From Bacillota bacterium (lineage in GTDB: Bacteria; Bacillota; Negativicutes; Sporomusales; CTSoil-080), in contig JAGGAC010000010.1 in NCBI GenBank assembly GCA_017889635.1, forward strand, positions 18,105 through 82,104: DNA of 64,000 bases. The letters run 5' to 3'. The translations under genes were made by a program, and so were the position numbers. Of the stretch, positions 5,185 to 57,216 are shown one piece after another (within the stretch, counting starts at the first letter, position 1; every line of letters begins with the position of its first letter). The notes below the pieces were generated by a model, which saw only the letters and a list, made by a program, of their open reading frames with translations, was not told the origin of the DNA and did no database searches.

Positions 5185-6330
5185 TCACACATCAAGACGT
5201 TGCCGCACGGCCCCCGGCCCATCCTGGGCTATCGCAACCTTGGCCTCCCCGAAAGTTTTCATATCGTTTAACATGCCCAGACTGGCGTCAATCATCGATA
5301 TCCCCAAAGCTGCTCCCGTTCCTTCGCCCAACTGCAAATTAAGGTGTAGATAAGCTGGTATTCCAATAAGCTCCAGCGCCACGGAATGAGCTGGCTCACA
5401 GGAAAGATGGGACCCAACAAGATAATCCTTTACCTCCGGGGCCAATTTAACAGCTATAAGTGCCGCTGCTGCTGTAACTACACCGTCAATTACCACCACC
5501 GCCCGTCCGGCAGCGGCCGCTAAAATCACACCAACCAATCCGGCTATTTCCAACCCGCCTAATTTCGCCAACACCGCTAATGGATCACCAATATCAGGCT
5601 GATTTACCGCCAGTGCCTGTTCGATAACTTGGACCTTGTGTTTAAAACTGGCACTGGACATGTCATTATCTTTTCCAGCGAGCTTAACTATCGGCAAAGC
5701 CGCATAACAAGCGACAACCGCTGCAGCGGACGTCGTATTTGCAGTACCAAATTCGCCTAAACCAATTATCTGTATTCCCTTTGCCAGTTCATCACGGGCC
5801 ACACAAATGCCTCTTTCAATAGCCCTGAGAGTCTCTTCGCGAGTCATCGCCGGCCCCTTGATAATGTTGGCTGAACCATAGCGGACTTTTTCCCGCCGTA
5901 ATGTCGGTAAATCTGGCAAATCGGAAGCTATGCCGACATCCACCAGTACCAACTGAACATCAATATAATTAGCAAAACTATTAATCACGGCTTGACCATG
6001 ACAGCAATTAACAACCCGCCGCCAAGTAACTTCTGACGAAAAAGCTCCGACACCTTCCTCCGCTACCCCATGATCGGCGGCCATAAGAATAATGCTTCGC
6101 TTAATATTTCTCGGCTTGTCCTTCCTAGTGACACCAGCCACTTTTCGGGCCAAATATTCTAAACCATTCAAACTACCTAACGGTTTAGTTAAATTGTCAA
6201 GCCGCAACTGACACAAATCCATCGCCGCTTCGTCCAGTGGTTCGATTGCTGCTAACAAATCTACTAGCATCCATCCACCTCCATACTGATTTACCATGCT
6301 ACTTTTTATAGCACTTTTGACTCTGAGCAC
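5185..6330 (-). CDS. cobT: CobT-family nicotinate-nucleotide:base phosphoribosyltransferase paralog (ArsB-like)
   Basis: The 381-aa ORF belongs to the CobT family, but its core motif deviates to GEFGTANTT. It overlaps the upstream paralog by 25 nt and has a C-terminal QLGEGTGAAL. Confidence 0.75.
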   Translation of the reverse strand: MLRVKSAIKSSMVNQYGGGWMLVDLLAAIEPLDEAAMDLCQLRLDNLTKPLGSLNGLEYLARKVAGVTRKDKPRNIKRSIILMAADHGVAEEGVGAFSSEVTWRRVVNCCHGQAVINSFANYIDVQLVLVDVGIASDLPDLPTLRREKVRYGSANIIKGPAMTREETLRAIERGICVARDELAKGIQIIGLGEFGTANTTSAAAVVACYAALPIVKLAGKDNDMSSASFKHKVQVIEQALAVNQPDIGDPLAVLAKLGGLEIAGLVGVILAAAAGRAVVVIDGVVTAAAALIAVKLAPEVKDYLVGSHLSCEPAHSVALELIGIPAYLHLNLQLGEGTGAALGISMIDASLGMLNDMKTFGEAKVAIAQDGPGAVRQRLDV

Positions 6331-7403
6331 TTCACCATATCATCGTTCATTTTGATTGAAATATCTAATAAATGCATAGCGAGCGAAGCACCAGCCCCTT
6401 CACCAAGTCGCAACCCCATATCAATATACGCCTCAAGTCCAAGAACACGGAGCATTTTTGCATGTGCTGGCTCCGCGGAGAGATGCGATGCCAACATAAA
6501 GCCCTTACAAAGTGGACTTAAAGAATTAGCAATAAGCCCCGCCGCAGTAGCGTTGAAGCCATCAATGACCACAATACAGCGTTTAGCTGCCGCAGCTAAA
6601 ATAACGCCAGCCAAAGCGCCGAGCTCAAATCCGCCAACCTTGGCGAGAATATCAATACCATCTTCCGGGTCAGGGTTATTTATCGCTAATGCCTGGCGAA
6701 CAGCAGCAATCTTTACCCGCATACGCCTATCAGATATTCCGGTACCCCGACCAGTAGCTTCTTTTGGAGTTAATCCCTCAAAGGCTGCTGTAATTGCAGC
6801 GCTGGACGTTGTATTTCCGATCCCCATTTCTCCTAGGCTAAAACAGCGATACCCTCGTTCCACTAATTCATCAACAACTGTAATTCCTGTTTCTATAGCA
6901 CTAATGGCCTCCGTGCGAGTCATCGCTGGTCCTTCGGTAAAATTCTTCGTCCCCCAAGCAATCTTATGATGCAACAAACCTGGTACATCAGACATATCGC
7001 CAGCAATTCCCATATCAATCACAACCATGTCGGCTTTCGAAAACTTAGCCATAGCATTGGCTCCGGCTCCTTTAGACACGAGATAATTGCGAGTCATCTG
7101 CATCGTTGTTTCAACAGGATAAGCGCTAATGCCAAGTTTAGCCACACCATGATCGGCGCAAGCCAATACCATGCATTTTCGCGGAATACTTGGTCGTTCA
7201 TCACCAATAATACCGGCATACTGTACAACCATGTCTTCCAGCCGTCCTAAGCTCCCCTGGAGCTTCGACAGATTGTCAAACCTCTTTTCCACCACTTGCA
7301 TAACCGCCGCATCAAGTGGTGCTATTTCCGACAAGGTTTCTGCCAACAACGCCCTAATCCCTCCTGCACAAAATGAAAAGGCCTTTTTGATGAGCACCAC
7401 CAA
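6306..7403 (-). CDS. cobT: CobT-family nicotinate-nucleotide:base phosphoribosyltransferase paralog (ArsA-like)
   Basis: The 365-aa ORF has the canonical GEMGIGNTT and LGEGAGAS CobT motifs. The true start may be at an internal Met. Confidence 0.8.
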   Translation of the reverse strand: MVVLIKKAFSFCAGGIRALLAETLSEIAPLDAAVMQVVEKRFDNLSKLQGSLGRLEDMVVQYAGIIGDERPSIPRKCMVLACADHGVAKLGISAYPVETTMQMTRNYLVSKGAGANAMAKFSKADMVVIDMGIAGDMSDVPGLLHHKIAWGTKNFTEGPAMTRTEAISAIETGITVVDELVERGYRCFSLGEMGIGNTTSSAAITAAFEGLTPKEATGRGTGISDRRMRVKIAAVRQALAINNPDPEDGIDILAKVGGFELGALAGVILAAAAKRCIVVIDGFNATAAGLIANSLSPLCKGFMLASHLSAEPAHAKMLRVLGLEAYIDMGLRLGEGAGASLAMHLLDISIKMNDDMVKCSESKVL

Positions 7404-7559
7404 AAAAGCCCTAGTCTTCCAGGCATTACTCGCCTTATAATCATTTTACCTCATTATACCAGTCGACTATTTGGATCGTCAACCCATACGCACACCTCAG
7501 CAAACCACTGCGTAATATATTATGACTACAGTTCTAAAAATTTTAAAAGGGGGATAGCA

Positions 7560-7679
7560 ATGAATATTCGAAATTTTGGGTGCGGATGGGGTTTTGGTAG
7601 TGGCTTTATTATATTTATTATTATCATCATCATACTTCTATTGTTTTTTACATTTGAAGAAGAATCCGGCACAATATGA
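7560..7679 (+). CDS. YjcZ-like tiny transmembrane (sporulation-associated) protein, 39 aa
   Basis: It is not in the ORF track because it is under 60 aa. An ATG at 7560 is preceded by AAAGGGGGATAGCA (RBS, 7-nt spacer). The product is MNIRNFGCGWGFGSGFIIFIIIIIILLLFFTFEEESGTI. The Gly/Cys-rich N-terminus followed by a single hydrophobic helix resembles the YjcZ/tiny_TM_bacill family. Confidence 0.4.
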   Translation: MNIRNFGCGWGFGSGFIIFIIIIIILLLFFTFEEESGTI

Positions 7680-7873
7680 CAAATCCAATATAATAATTCA
7701 AATGCCAACTTTATTAGCCGGGTTTGTCCCGGTTCTTTTGTTTTACCGATACATAAAAGACCTACTGATCAGCAACCAAAAAAAGAAACGGCAACTCAAA
7801 GGCTACCGATTCTTTCAAAGTTTAAGTTATAACATTCCAGACATATTACATTTCACCATAAAAACCATCACAC

Positions 7874-8071
7874 CTATACCATTTCATGATGTGGCATGCC
7901 GCATCGAGGACAATAATCATGGTGATGATGTTTATACTCGTGACCGCAGTAAGAACATACCCTTACAACATGATAGCAACAATCTTCATAAATCTTATAT
8001 TTTATTTCACCAACGCATCTTCTCATGCACTTAGGCTTGCAGTAATGGCCGCAACCTTCATATCGATCCAT
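7874..8071 (-). CDS. Cys/His-rich small protein (candidate spore coat / metal-binding protein)
   Basis: The 65-aa product has about 11 Cys and 10 His, including HHHH. A perfect RBS AAAGGAGGT lies 9 nt before the ATG. A sigma-K-like promoter lies upstream. Confidence 0.55.
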   Translation of the reverse strand: MDRYEGCGHYCKPKCMRRCVGEIKYKIYEDCCYHVVRVCSYCGHEYKHHHHDYCPRCGMPHHEMV

Positions 8072-8095
8072 TATTCAAATACCTCCTTTCTACTA

Positions 8096-8123
8096 TACGA
8101 TATGCACAATGGCGACAACATGT
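8096..8123 (-). promoter_or_regulatory. sigma-K-type promoter (AC-17 nt-CATATCGTA) for the Cys/His-rich gene
   Basis: The minus strand reads AC ATGTTGTCGCCATTGTG CATATCGTA, which fits AC-17-CATAnnnTA. The RBS begins about 9 nt downstream of the -10, so the leader is very short. Confidence 0.4.
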
Positions 8124-8183
8124 TATGTTTTGCATTACTTTTTTGATTATTTGCTTCTTAGTTAGAGATAGGTGTAAACAGTA

Positions 8184-8211
8184 ACACTATTTACCGATTA
8201 TTCATACTGTA
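8184..8211 (+). promoter_or_regulatory. sigma-K-type promoter (AC-17 nt-CATACTGTA) for the 8251 gene
   Basis: The plus strand reads AC ACTATTTACCGATTATT CATACTGTA, which fits AC-17-CATAnnnTA. It is followed by an RBS GGAGG and the ATG at 8251. Confidence 0.45.
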
Positions 8212-8250
8212 TAGTAAGCTAAATTCAATCCCAGAAGGAGGTAATATTAG

Positions 8251-8838
8251 ATGAGTATTTTTCGGGAACTTTGTAATTGTGCTCTAATTAGGGAATTAGG
8301 GCGTGAACTTAACACTGATGTTCTTTTATTTGGGTTCGACGGCTTTACTTATTTTGGTACCTTACAGGCAATCGACGATTCACGAATTGCCATTCTTTCA
8401 CCAGCAGTTGAAGCTGAAACCAGCAATGTTGAAATTCTTTCGCCAGGCGGAGAACTTGTCGAAGTAAAATTTGCCCGCGTAGATCTATGGCAGATAGTTG
8501 CAAAGGGTACAGGAATAGTAACTGACCCTATCGATCCTCCGCGGCCGCCAGGTCCAGCCGTTGTCCTCCAGGAAGCATCATTAGGAACTACCGAGCGACA
8601 GGAAAGTTGCGATTTAATTCGCTGGCTCGCCCGTCAAGTAGGTGATGACGTTGCAATAACTACTCTCGGTGGGTTCCTCTTTGAAGGAACTCTCAGCGAA
8701 CTTGATGACTGCTTAGCGATTCTGTCGGTAGACGACATTTTTGTCCCTGGTACCAGTTCCAGCATTTCAAGTAACAATCTGAGATCGGTAGTAATCAATC
8801 TTAACGCCATTACGTCAGTGTCCGGGGCCACGAGCTAA
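8251..8838 (+). CDS. hypothetical protein with two tandem Sm-like/small-barrel repeats
   Basis: The 195-aa product has a strong RBS (AGAAGGAGGT). It shows an internal duplication: LLFGFDGFTYFGTLQAIDDSRIAILS versus ITTLGGFLFEGTLSELDDCLAILS. Confidence 0.6.
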   Translation: MSIFRELCNCALIRELGRELNTDVLLFGFDGFTYFGTLQAIDDSRIAILSPAVEAETSNVEILSPGGELVEVKFARVDLWQIVAKGTGIVTDPIDPPRPPGPAVVLQEASLGTTERQESCDLIRWLARQVGDDVAITTLGGFLFEGTLSELDDCLAILSVDDIFVPGTSSSISSNNLRSVVINLNAITSVSGATS

Positions 8839-8916
8839 CAATCCATCTTATGTAAAAGGACCCGGTTCAATAACTACCGGGTCTTTGTTAATTACAAAAT
8901 TGAGGAGGTTAAAACC

Positions 8917-9768
8917 ATGCTTATAGCCGTAGAACATCTTGGCGAAGTCGGGGTAGGAATAACTACACCGCATTTTTTTCGTGCTGACGATGACAATACT
9001 TATGTAGTTAAACTGCAAAACAATCGGCTTGGTCCCAAAGTTTTAGTAAGCGAGTTTCTAGCAGCGAGAATTGGAAAAATTATGAGACTATGCTTTCCTC
9101 CTAGCAGCTTAATTTTAATACCCAAGGAATTATTAGAGAAAAATCAACAATTGGCCATTACCGGTGTGCAACCAGGATTACATTTCGCATCACAATATTT
9201 GAACAATGCCGAATATCTTGATAAAAACAATTTATCCAAGGCAACTAATATAAAAGAAATGGCAGGAATAATGCTATTCGACCATATGTTCCATAACCTA
9301 GACCGTTCCGGCAACAAAAAAAACCTTTTGCTGTGCCGCGAAGAAGATGCGTTCAAAATATATGCAATTGATAACTCGCATTTATTTAAAGCTGGGCGCT
9401 GGACAGTTAAGTCCCTTGAAAAATTGGCAAACAATAAAAAAATTTATTATCGGCGTAATTTCGGGCTATTACTCAAAGACTGTCTTACCCCCGATGACTT
9501 TCTATCATATCTTGAAAACTTAAAAAAGCTTACCGATAGCGAGATTACCAACATAATTAACGATATCCCTGCTGAATGGTTAACAGATGAAACCGAACGG
9601 CAGGCATTGGCTCAGCACATCAAAATTCGGCGAGACGTTGTCACGCAGCTCTGGCAAAAACTGTGCAACAACATCCCGCGAAAACGCGGCGGACGAAAAC
9701 CAATTAATAGCAAAGTAATTCGCTTGACTAATCACAACAATAATTTAACCAGCACTCCGCTCAAGTAA
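8917..9768 (+). CDS. atypical protein-kinase-like fold protein (PI3/4K- / HipA- / spore-kinase-like)
   Basis: The 283-aa product has a strong RBS (GAGGAGGT). It has a Gly-rich N-terminal stretch and a catalytic-loop-like FDHMFHNLDRSGNKKNLLL followed by a DFG-like AIDNS. The family assignment is uncertain. Confidence 0.6.
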   Translation: MLIAVEHLGEVGVGITTPHFFRADDDNTYVVKLQNNRLGPKVLVSEFLAARIGKIMRLCFPPSSLILIPKELLEKNQQLAITGVQPGLHFASQYLNNAEYLDKNNLSKATNIKEMAGIMLFDHMFHNLDRSGNKKNLLLCREEDAFKIYAIDNSHLFKAGRWTVKSLEKLANNKKIYYRRNFGLLLKDCLTPDDFLSYLENLKKLTDSEITNIINDIPAEWLTDETERQALAQHIKIRRDVVTQLWQKLCNNIPRKRGGRKPINSKVIRLTNHNNNLTSTPLK

Positions 9769-9791
9769 ATTAGCATACCTCCTGGATATAA

Positions 9792-9834
9792 GTAAACCTC
9801 GGCCTCCGCTTAGTTAACGGCGGCCGAGGTTTAC
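9792..9834. terminator. bidirectional hairpin between convergent genes
   Basis: GTAAACCTCGGCC…GGCCGAGGTTTAC forms a 13-bp stem between the 8917 gene (+) and fcl (-). Confidence 0.45.
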
Positions 9835-10800
9835 TTATGTATTCGCCCTATACCAATTAATAGTCTGAGCCAACCCAACCTCTAGCGGCGTTGTTGCTAT
9901 AAACCCAAACAACTGATTGGCTTTACTTATATCAAGAGCACGTCGTGGCTGACCGTTAGGTTTGTCTTTATCCCATAAAACCAAACCTTCAAAACCAGTC
10001 AGTTCTTTAATTTTTTTAACCAACTCTTTGATTGTCACTTCCTGTCCAGTCCCCAAATTAACTGGCAAACATCCGTTATATTGTTCTGTGGCCAACACAA
10101 TTCCTGTTGCAGCATCAGTAACATATAAAAACTCACGGCTAGCCGATCCATCACCCCAAACCGCTATTTCTCTAAGGCCAGAACGTTTTGCCTCCAAACA
10201 TTTTCTAATAAGGGCTGGAATCACATGTGAAGTAGACAAATCAAAATTGTCACCAGGACCATATAAATTAACCGGCATTAAAAATATAGCATTAAACCCG
10301 TACTGATCACGATAAGCTTGGCTTTGCACAAGCATCATTTTCTTGGCCAATCCGTACGGAGCGTTAGTTTCTTCTGGATAGCCGTCCCAAAGACTTTCTT
10401 CTTTAAATGGCACTGGACAGTGTTTAGGATAAGAACAAACTGTTCCGATAGCTACAAACTTCTCAATACCATAAAGTCTACCGTACTCAATAAGCTGAGT
10501 CCCCATCATAAGATTATCATAGAAATACTTGCCCGGATTTTCTCGATTGGCCCCAATACCACCAACCACTGCCGCCAGATGAATAACTATATCCGGTCGG
10601 AACGTCTCATACATTCTGATAATACTCTGTTCTTTAGTTAAATCATAGTCGACGCTTCGAGGAACAAAAAGTTCTGTGCACCCGCGCTCTTTAAGGGTTG
10701 CCACCACCTTTGATCCAAGAAACCCCGCCCCTCCAGTAACAACAATCCGGCGCTGCCGATAAAAATCCACATCAATCCCTCCTGCCCTTTTATTCAGCAT
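9835..10800 (-). CDS. fcl: GDP-L-fucose synthase
   Basis: The 321-aa ORF has an SDR-extended fold with the N-terminal [10 protein letters not shown] motif and belongs to the GDP-fucose synthase family. Confidence 0.85.
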
Positions 10801-12058: not shown

Positions 12059-12658
12059 TTATTCAGGAAGCCAAAACTCTCGCCCAAACCTTTGCAGATC
12101 TTTTTCCAGCGCCCGCCGAACTGCATTAGACTGCTTAACAAAGCCAACCAACGCCTGATGTTCGCCACTCTCGGTTATCACCGAATCATACAGATTAGTT
12201 CCATTATTGACATCTGCTACAATCATATACAACGGTACAGTTGCCGTCCAACGCTTAAGTAATATCAGCGCATTTGGAAAATCCAGCTGCTGCTCAGTGA
12301 CAACAAATAGTACTTCCGCTCGAACACTGTAATCCACCATCATAGCACGAAAAGCTGCCAGAAGCGCAGACGAGTCCGCCGTCGAATAATCTTCCACCCC
12401 CTCCATCCTCAACTTATCTAACAGATTTTGTCCGGACAGTACAATATACCTATCAGCAGGAAATTTAGCAGCCAAGGCTTCATTGACCATTTCAGCCGTA
12501 TACTGGCCACCCCGTAATCCAGAATTGTTAATAGCCGGCAAAACGGCAACTACTGCTTTCGCACCATACTGGTGGGCATTAGCAAGTGGTGGCGCAATAG
12601 TCATAAAAGAAACGAATGTGAAAATAAACCACCAAACAATAAATACTATTTTGCGCAT
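12059..12658 (-). CDS. hypothetical secreted protein (N-terminal signal/TM segment)
   Basis: The 199-aa ORF has a hydrophobic N-terminus (IVFIVWWFIFTFVSFMTIAPPLANA). Confidence 0.45.
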   Translation of the reverse strand: MRKIVFIVWWFIFTFVSFMTIAPPLANAHQYGAKAVVAVLPAINNSGLRGGQYTAEMVNEALAAKFPADRYIVLSGQNLLDKLRMEGVEDYSTADSSALLAAFRAMMVDYSVRAEVLFVVTEQQLDFPNALILLKRWTATVPLYMIVADVNNGTNLYDSVITESGEHQALVGFVKQSNAVRRALEKDLQRFGREFWLPE

Positions 12659-56538: not shown

Positions 56539-56676
56539 AAATTACTTTCAAAAGACCTGTCGCTTAGGCGTCAAGTCTTTTTTTATGCTTAATAGTCCCT
56601 TATAATCATTCACCCTCCCCAGGCGCACCACATAAAATAAAGAAAAGCCTAGAAAACTAAAACAGGAGATGATTAA

Positions 56677-57216
56677 GTGCCCAAACCTCTTAATTCCCAC
56701 AATCCCCGAAGCTATTTCGCAACTTCAACCACTTGTAACAACTATACCCCATGCGTTGCGGTTGCTGAAATCATGGGTAGCCCTCTCGCCCCAAAGCTAA
56801 GAGGACAGGTTTTTTTCACCGCCGTACCAGGTGGAACCGAGGTCTGTGTTGAAATCTGCAATCTACCGCCTTATCACCCTGCCCAAGGCGATAACCCTCA
56901 AGTCGGGCCACACGGTTTTCACATTCACGAATGTGGCAACTGCGAAATATGCGATCCAACTAATCCATTCACCTCAGCGGGCGGCCACTGGAACCCAAAC
57001 AAGCAACCACACGGCAACCACGCCGGTGATTTTCCCGCATTATTCTCTAACCACGGTTATTCGTGTATGACCTTTTTTACTGATAAATTTTGCGTCCCGG
57101 ATATTATCGGAAAATCGGTCATAATTCATCAAAGCCCCGACGACTATCGAACCCAACCAGCAGGAAACTCTGGCAAGCGTCTAGCTTGCGGCATAATTAA
57201 ATCTTCTCATAACTGA
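56677..57216 (+). CDS. Cu/Zn superoxide dismutase-like family protein
   Basis: It has a GTG start after AGGAGAT. It has HGFHIHE, GGHWNP, HGNHAGD and C-terminal GKRLACGII motifs, with no signal peptide. Confidence 0.6.
   Translation: MPKPLNSHNPRSYFATSTTCNNYTPCVAVAEIMGSPLAPKLRGQVFFTAVPGGTEVCVEICNLPPYHPAQGDNPQVGPHGFHIHECGNCEICDPTNPFTSAGGHWNPNKQPHGNHAGDFPALFSNHGYSCMTFFTDKFCVPDIIGKSVIIHQSPDDYRTQPAGNSGKRLACGIIKSSHN

Follow-up and report, generated by a model that had tools for sequence, protein, structure and literature searches.

Which genes around a pair of back-to-back promoters belong together, and are they genes of the spore? This question is raised by a locus at positions 7874-9768 of the window, by which we mean the whole stretch of 64,000 nucleotides (nt) of contig JAGGAC010000010.1 analysed here, which comes from the chromosome of a Sporomusaceae-like Negativicutes bacterium. 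A preliminary description had presented the locus as a candidate for spore coat genes, made up of two divergent genes behind sigma-K-type promoters: one for a Cys/His-rich protein of 65 amino acids (aa), here CH65, and one for a protein with two Sm-like repeats, here Sm195. The region in fact contains three genes instead of two, and the divergent pair was not borne out as a unit. The conserved partner of the Sm195 gene is the gene downstream of it, which encodes a 283-aa kinase of the HipA_2 family. With moderate confidence, we regard the locus as a late-sporulation cassette of spore-forming Negativicutes, probably expressed in the mother cell, in which Sm195 would be a structural protein of the spore envelope. 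The features of the Sm195-kinase unit are as follows.

8181-8216, forward strand: sigma-K-type promoter of the Sm195 gene, with GTAACA (8181-8186), a 16-nt spacer and CATACTGTATAGTA (8203-8216).
8235-8242, forward strand: Shine-Dalgarno sequence AAGGAGGT of the Sm195 gene, read from the sequence.
8251-8838, forward strand: Sm195 gene, 195 aa, from the list of open reading frames (ORFs).
8855-8889, forward strand: leaky intrinsic terminator in the gap between the Sm195 and kinase genes, GGACCCGGT...ACCGGGTC then TTTGTT, from folding and conservation.
8917-9768, forward strand: gene for an atypical protein kinase of the HipA_2 family, partner of Sm195, 283 aa.

The pairing was examined in 25 orthologous loci from 24 species-level genomes, and further loci were found by exact protein look-up. 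When the window proteins were compared with the 25 loci by tblastn, the kinase gene lay directly after the Sm gene in 24 (the gap is 78 nt in the window); the sole exception was a second Lucifera paralogue, which lacks the kinase. Lucifera butyrica (L022, L023) encodes two Sm195 paralogues with the same promoter type, and a kinase gene follows one alone. The pairing was also found in loci L026, L034 and L035, Thermosinus and Sporolituus being among the genera in which it holds. The Sm195 family yielded 193 matches among 5.8 billion proteins, and 54 clusters among 1.84 billion representatives, three of them spurious. The spurious ones (P0137, P0144 and P0172) are giant TIG-repeat proteins with short matches and were dropped. 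The matches named to genus all belonged to Sporomusa, Pelosinus, Thermosinus, Sporolituus, Lucifera and Propionispora, which form spores or carry sporulation genes, and the other named matches came from metagenome-assembled genomes (MAGs) labelled only to phylum, class or order. Judged from these searches, the family is small and confined to a single clade. In the literature we found nothing that describes the Sm195-kinase pair, the HipA_2 family in sporulation or Sm-like coat proteins.

Elements of the form AC-N17-CATAnnnTA had been described upstream of both divergent genes, and they are present at ACACTATTTACCGATTATTCATACTGTA (8184-8211, forward) and ACATGTTGTCGCCATTGTGCATATCGTA (8123-8096, reverse). 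Both genes also have the ribosome-binding sites that had been noted, AAGGAGG in each case. The -10 elements of the form CATAnnnTA are CATACTGTA (8203-8211, forward) and CATATCGTA (8104-8096, reverse), and the -35 position, for which mACm 16-17 nt upstream of CATA was sought, is occupied at both promoters by AACA with a 16-nt spacer. The two promoters share the architecture TAACA, 16-nt spacer, CATAyyGTATAGTA. The minimal consensus occurs six times in the 64 kb (2.57 expected), a number reached in 8 of 100 shuffles; by itself it is weak evidence and not significant. The stricter form AACA-N15-17-CATAnnnTA has four matches (0.79 expected), of which the two that are not these promoters lie antisense within ORFs. 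The extended -10 element CATAnnGTATAGTA has two matches (0.28 expected), both at these two promoters. One minimal match elsewhere, ACCCTCCCCAGGCGCACCACATAAAATA (56612-56639, forward), ends 38 nt before a Cu/Zn superoxide dismutase gene (56677-57216; Pfam Sod_Cu, E 4e-30); it does not show the extended element and may have arisen by chance.

Upstream of Sm195 orthologues, GTAACA-N16-CATAnnGTATAGTA was found in about 30 loci. It stands before nearly all orthologues, which come from Sporomusa, Pelosinus, Propionispora, Lucifera, Thermosinus, Sporolituus and other MAGs. A conservation profile of 25 unique upstream regions, anchored on the -10 element, showed two high-information blocks, AGTAACAC and CATACAGTATAGTAA, separated by a spacer of variable sequence and a fixed length of 16 nt. 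In these regions the -10 element stands 48-59 nt upstream of the start codon. The consensus -35 across the loci is GTAACA, and CATAnnnTA is kept in most of them, the last two bases differing in L022, L023, L025 and the second L029 paralogue. Inspection of four further loci by eye found the element in L028, L029 (both divergent members) and L034 (orthologous), and GTGGCA for GTAACA in L035. The same promoter type precedes the divergent members L028, both L029 paralogues, L031 and L032. Conservation of the promoter across orthologous loci goes well beyond chance.

The consensus of sigma-K coat promoters in B. subtilis and Clostridia is reportedly AC-N16-17-CATAnnnTA (compilations of Eichenberger and Helmann). 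Both window promoters agree with it in having AC, a 17-nt gap and CATAnnnTA. The -35 element is ACA, and not the ATA that is said, in consensus compilations for B. subtilis, to mark sigma-E promoters. The element differs from known sigma-K coat promoters in being longer and more rigid (GTAACA-N16-CATAnAGTATAGTA). The acting factor is probably sigma-K, with sigma-E as a less likely candidate. The predicted start site of the Sm gene in the window is 8216-8218.

Transcript data are available for an orthologue. Differential RNA sequencing, Term-seq and RNA-seq have been published for Sporomusa sphaeroides KIAC (PMC12456013). The orthologue was located by synteny: in S. sphaeroides DSM 2875 (L026), the genes are annotated in the order IMP dehydrogenase, 3D-domain protein, hypothetical protein, tautomerase, Sm193, HipA_2, VTT-domain protein, hypothetical protein and RecG, and because this order recurs at KIAC18_000873 to 000881, we assign KIAC18_000877 as the Sm gene and 000878 as that of the kinase. 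The divergent neighbour in Sporomusa is a tautomerase gene, with a SigH-type start site. A primary start site of 000877 was reported at 840960 (forward), with SigA and SigK motifs flagged by the authors, and a 3′ end at 841757 (forward) (PMC12456013). For 000878 no start site appears among the table rows of that study that were examined, and neither locus tag is mentioned in its main text. We transferred the KIAC sites to L026 by a single offset of 831,000, which assumes no insertions or deletions between the two strains. The Sm start site then falls on an A, 7 nt past CATACAGTA, and the Sm 3′ end on the final T of a T7 run that follows the intergenic hairpin; the tautomerase start site falls on an A behind a SigH-like element, and the tautomerase 3′ end within the U-tract after a hairpin. 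Because four sites agree under one offset, the strains are likely free of insertions and deletions across the region. The start site in this orthologue is therefore 7 nt past the -10 element, inside the 6-9 nt that the preliminary description had specified, and in this respect too it is like that of sigma-K coat promoters.

Normalised counts in cultures on CO2, formate, methanol and betaine were 73, 303, 5523 and 14138 for the Sm gene (000877), and 10, 46, 319 and 588 for the kinase gene (000878) (PMC12456013). In the same conditions and order, the counts were 75, 314, 1068 and 790 for sigK (000231), 585, 1602, 5165 and 12392 for a small acid-soluble spore protein gene (001117), and 4457, 10619, 3115 and 14275 for spoIVA (PMC12456013). 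Because the counts of sporulation genes are high, sporulation was evidently under way in the KIAC cultures. The Sm gene was induced about 190-fold, the conditions were ranked as for 001117, and its peak count (14138) equals that of spoIVA (14275). Its transcript is thus as abundant as those of major structural sporulation genes. Constitutive transcription, which the preliminary description had named as an argument against a sporulation promoter, is not seen; expression of the orthologue is strongly conditional. The SigK motif class of the authors also holds the yabG orthologue (PMC12456013). Dependence on sigK is a correlation only: the orthologue rises with the sigK gene and the late sporulation genes. 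Taken with the blocks kept across genera and the start site of the orthologue, this induction gives good support to a sigma-K reading of the Sm promoter.

The intergenic hairpin of the window (8855-8889) folds at -24.3 kcal/mol (z -4.1), and its stem GACyCGGT...ACCGrGTC recurs in 22 of 23 loci. In S. sphaeroides, the ratio of kinase RNA to Sm RNA is 0.04-0.15, and this ratio together with the Term-seq 3′ end indicates a leaky terminator that sets a high ratio of Sm to kinase. The stem stands at the same place in L001-L024 and is conserved across genera, with no drift by compensatory changes; such an unchanging stem hints at a constraint beyond simple termination. In S. sphaeroides (L026, 10640-10850) the terminator loop carries an insertion of about 110 nt, followed by a second copy of a short repeat (tataactttc...ggataag.gcaaca.cg...), which has the look of a small miniature inverted-repeat transposable element. 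The Term-seq 3′ end is still at the original T-run despite this insertion.

The two Sm-like repeats that had been described in Sm195 were confirmed by structure prediction and by sequence. The AlphaFold2 model of the single chain (predicted local distance difference test score, pLDDT, 82; predicted template-modelling score, pTM, 0.81) shows a helix and a five-strand barrel twice, at about residues 10-89 and 118-192, with a disordered, variable linker between them, and by BLASTP one half is a homologue of the other (E 2e-8). In the model, each domain has the features of the Sm/LSm fold, a helix at the N-terminus and then a strongly bent beta-barrel of five strands. In the fold comparison that had been suggested as a check, the structural matches of the model were all RNA-binding Sm/LSm/Hfq proteins. 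Pfam LSM (PF01423) was matched by the C-terminal domain alone and below threshold (16.6 against 23.4 bits), and no Pfam family was found above threshold. Sm195 differs from Sm/LSm/Hfq proteins in being a tandem fusion with a variable linker (Cys/Pro-rich in some orthologues) and, in most orthologues, a Cys-rich tail at the end. It also differs from them in that its canonical RNA-contact residues appear to be replaced. In an alignment to SmD1 (hhalign, not significant and extended by hand, with the SmD1 sequence entered by hand), the places of the Sm1 Asn and the Sm2 Arg-Gly are taken by R45-I46 and D78-L79 in the N-terminal domain and by N183-L184 in the C-terminal domain; the replacing residues are invariant and non-canonical. 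Sm195 and CH65 matched no curated coat or exosporium family in Pfam and NCBIfam, and NCBIfam gave no match for CH65, Sm195 or the kinase, in keeping with the earlier remark that neither divergent product resembles a characterised coat protein.

The kinase matched PF20613 (HipA_2) with 87.6 bits (threshold 27) over residues 10-231, and its catalytic residues K32, E46, D129, N133, N136 and D152 (the last in IDNSH), which include a metal-binding Asp, are invariant in 17 sequences. The kinase fold was confirmed, with CtkA and PI4KII-alpha structurally closer than HipA; a sequence search of the PDB with the kinase returned nothing useful. It has no match to the CotH Pfam family (PF08757), and it shares 13% sequence identity with CotH (PDB 5jda), which acts on CotB and CotG in B. 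subtilis and B. cereus. The Sm-fold partner here is not of the Ser/Lys/Arg repeat type, and kinase activity is predicted from sequence and fold.

On the reading that we favour, a sigma-K-class RNA polymerase would recognise GTAACA-N16-CATAnnGTATAGTA and start about 7 nt downstream, giving a transcript with a leader of about 35-40 nt and a strong ribosome-binding site that encodes Sm195. The conserved intrinsic terminator would halt most transcripts after Sm195, and a few percent would read through to the kinase gene; by this leakiness, the cell would produce much Sm195 and little kinase. Sm195 is a pseudo-dimer of two Sm-fold barrels and might assemble by itself into a structural part of the coat or of an outer layer. 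Its expression level, promoter class, Cys-rich tails and restriction to one clade are the reasons for suggesting a structural role in the envelope, and its location in the spore coat is our hypothesis. By analogy with CotH, which acts on Bacillus coat proteins, the kinase may modify Sm195 or neighbouring envelope proteins. CH65 would be a co-regulated accessory, made at the same time, probably from the back-to-back promoter of the same type.

Several points weigh against this reading; they concern the promoter and its transcription, Sm195 itself and the kinase. Sigma-E and sigma-K recognise similar -10 elements, and the promoter of the most divergent orthologue (L025, GTATACA...CATACATT) looks more sigma-E-like. 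The start-site, 3′-end and expression data come from S. sphaeroides KIAC and not from the organism of the window. The KIAC RNA was taken from mid-exponential cultures, the start site with the SigK motif was also flagged for a SigA motif, and the authors call cluster C7 methanol-specific, a cluster that also contains non-sporulation genes such as a zinc ABC transporter (PMC12456013). Induction on methanol and betaine is moreover confounded with methyl-group metabolism. Such data would suit a cassette that is not specific to sporulation and has a weak SigA-type promoter, induced by methanol or betaine or in stationary phase. GTAACA-18-TACAGT could serve as a weak sigma-70-type promoter, and the cassette adjoins two cobT genes in the window and in L004. 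The conserved block of 15 nt (CATAcAGTATAGTAA), however, exceeds what a SigA -10 needs, with an invariant CA upstream of any sigma-70 hexamer, and TATAGT is too near the mapped start site for a SigA -10. Sporulation genes were high in the same samples with the conditions ranked alike, Sporomusa, Pelosinus and Thermosinus do not share the cobT neighbourhood, and the genera named among the matches are those of spore-formers or carriers of sporulation genes. We consider a SigA-driven cassette of this kind unlikely.

For Sm195 itself, the protein of the window has no Cys-rich tail and ends in SGATS, a Ser-rich loop that might be a phosphorylation site is not conserved in distant homologues, and neither Sm195 nor the kinase matches a known coat family in Pfam or NCBIfam. 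Sm195 could alternatively be an RNA-binding protein of Sm/Hfq type that stores or protects RNA during sporulation, in the mother cell or the spore, under the control of the kinase. The structural matches are all to RNA-binding proteins, and a transcript that is very abundant in sporulation, comparable to those of small acid-soluble spore proteins, would also suit this role. The subthreshold LSM score, the invariant non-canonical residues at the Sm1 Asn and Sm2 Arg-Gly (in the non-significant alignment to SmD1) and the C-terminal Cys-rich tails, which would be unusual in cytoplasmic RNA chaperones, speak against it, and we judge this role improbable, to about the same degree as the SigA-driven cassette.

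The kinase family, finally, matches the phage protein family phrog_3162 (E 4e-37), of unknown function, and the candidate defence-cluster model PDC-M66A (E 2e-16). A toxin-antitoxin or anti-phage module, in which a HipA-like kinase toxin is neutralised or sensed by the abundant Sm-like protein, would account for these matches, for the HipA-related Pfam family and for an upstream partner far more strongly expressed than the kinase, as in antitoxin-toxin pairs, but is very improbable: no HipB-type helix-turn-helix is encoded upstream or present in Sm195, there is no HipB or HipS partner, the kinase (just 283 aa) lacks the HipA N-terminal domain found in HipA/HipBST toxin kinases, no species-level genome with an Sm195 relative lacks the pair (25 loci, 24 genomes), sequence divergence tracks taxonomy and is unlike that of patchy mobile elements, the promoter is conserved and of sporulation type, transcripts of the Sm gene reach the level of structural spore genes, and no mobile-element genes flank the cassette in the window.

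The third gene of the region, CH65, falls outside the conserved unit: by tblastn against the fetched loci, its homologues (72 aa) were found in L001 and L002 only. Its features in the window are listed below.

7874-8071, reverse strand: CH65 gene, 65 aa, from the ORF list.
8082-8088, reverse strand: Shine-Dalgarno sequence AAGGAGG of CH65, read from the sequence.
8091-8125, reverse strand: sigma-K-type promoter of CH65, TAACA-N16-CATATCGTATAGTA, from a motif match.
7789-7808, reverse strand: terminator-like hairpin and T-run 3′ of CH65, from a consensus scan only.

The start site of CH65 is predicted near 8089, with a leader of about 18 nt. The promoter architecture shared with the Sm gene also precedes the L001 and L002 homologues, so that a sigma-K-type reading of the CH65 promoter is supported by its conservation at the two loci that carry the gene. 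A homology search with CH65 returned just CH65. The share of Cys and His had been put at about 30 percent with an HHHH run, and the measured fraction is 0.29; the run itself, taken at first as a coat-like trait, is not conserved in the homologues, which carry His/Met-rich tails. Ten Cys are invariant in the three homologues, including CxxCG...CPRCG; C39-x2-C42 and C54-x2-C57 are among the invariant positions, and DZR_2 is matched with 17.5 bits (threshold 27). Because the proportion of nonsynonymous differences (pN) is 0.22 and that of synonymous differences (pS) is saturated at 0.76-0.85, CH65 is under purifying selection. It is a real gene, for a zinc-ribbon-like mini-protein found only in this lineage. 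Like the coat and exosporium proteins CotY/CotZ/ExsY and CdeC of disulfide-cross-linked outer spore layers, CH65 and the tails of most Sm195 orthologues are Cys-rich; unlike in those proteins, the Cys pattern of CH65 resembles zinc knuckles (CxxC...CxxC), and no sequence or family relationship to them was detected for the cassette proteins. The idea that CH65 substitutes for the missing Cys tail of Sm195 was dropped, as Thermosinus and Sporolituus have neither a tail nor a CH65-like ORF.

A MAG named 'Firmicutes bacterium' encodes the same three proteins, without any difference, as H6Q73_1265, 1266 and 1267. Neighbouring genes in the window include two CobT paralogues, GDP-mannose dehydratase, GDP-fucose synthase and NAD synthase. 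Beyond the kinase gene, one more feature lies where it converges with the GDP-fucose synthase gene.

9791-9837, no strand assigned: palindromic hairpin in the gap between these two converging genes, read from the sequence.

This palindrome gave a symmetric spurious Rfam match on both strands and is probably a bidirectional terminator that closes the operon. An Rfam search over 7400-9900 found no genuine RNA family. The two adjacent CobT-family genes (5185-7403, reverse; 381 and 365 aa by ORF call, with a 25-nt overlap) encode paralogues of nicotinate-nucleotide--dimethylbenzimidazole phosphoribosyltransferase, and the same pair adjoins the cassette in L004. It resembles the ArsAB pair of Sporomusa ovata, which activates phenolic lower ligands of cobamides. 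Between these genes and CH65 is a 39-aa ORF, MNIRNFGCGWGFGSGFIIFIIIIIILLLFFTFEEESGTI (7560-7679, forward), whose ribosome-binding site (AAAGGGGGA) is strong and which has a terminator-like hairpin at 7716-7734. Its product is a tiny membrane protein, rich in Gly, that recalls the YjcZ-type mini-proteins of sporulation, and it has no significant NCBIfam or Pfam match. Further downstream, a 199-aa protein (12059-12658, reverse) with no Pfam or NCBIfam match has syntenic counterparts in L001 and L002 at 67-72% identity; for L004 the identity is 39%.

Divergent members of the family show other arrangements. In L028, the two Sm domains are split into separate genes. In L029 (1421-8431), two tandem-Sm paralogues flank a 547-aa protein with no Pfam match on record, whose N-terminus was tested for likeness to Sm and gave no significant result. 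The L029 locus lies directly 3′ of genes like those of dTDP-rhamnose biosynthesis (epimerase/dehydratase, NTP_transferase, dTDP_sugar_isom and RmlD_sub_bind), a layout that recalls the sigma-K-controlled spore-polysaccharide genes sps of B. subtilis. In the window, GDP-fucose genes likewise adjoin the cassette. In L031 (2849-3889) and L032 (1015-2040), the position of the kinase gene after the tandem-Sm gene is taken by one for a metallophosphoesterase (Pfam Metallophos), and a DUF3231 gene is found upstream in this branch.

To our knowledge, the outer spore layers of Negativicutes, endospore formers that possess an outer membrane, have hardly been characterised in molecular terms, and we know of no orthologues in this class for most Bacillus coat proteins. 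The cassette is a concrete candidate for a part of this envelope: it occurs clade-wide, is very highly expressed in an orthologue, has a clearly defined promoter and terminator, and pairs a putative structural protein of a fold novel for that role with a dedicated kinase. Stage-resolved proteomes exist for Acetonema longum (PMC13018214). The promoter element GTAACA-N16-CATAnAGTATAGTA is a sharp motif that could serve for mapping the late mother-cell regulon in these organisms. What is new is the combination of fold and partner, within the known kind of late mother-cell envelope genes with a coat-associated kinase. Tentatively, and with less confidence than in the cassette as such, we suggest that the Sm fold may have been recruited as a major self-assembling block of the envelope, whose assembly would be controlled by a kinase related to CotH, PI4KII and HipA and kept at a low level through read-through. 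If true, this would be a principle of coat building not seen in Bacillus or Clostridium.

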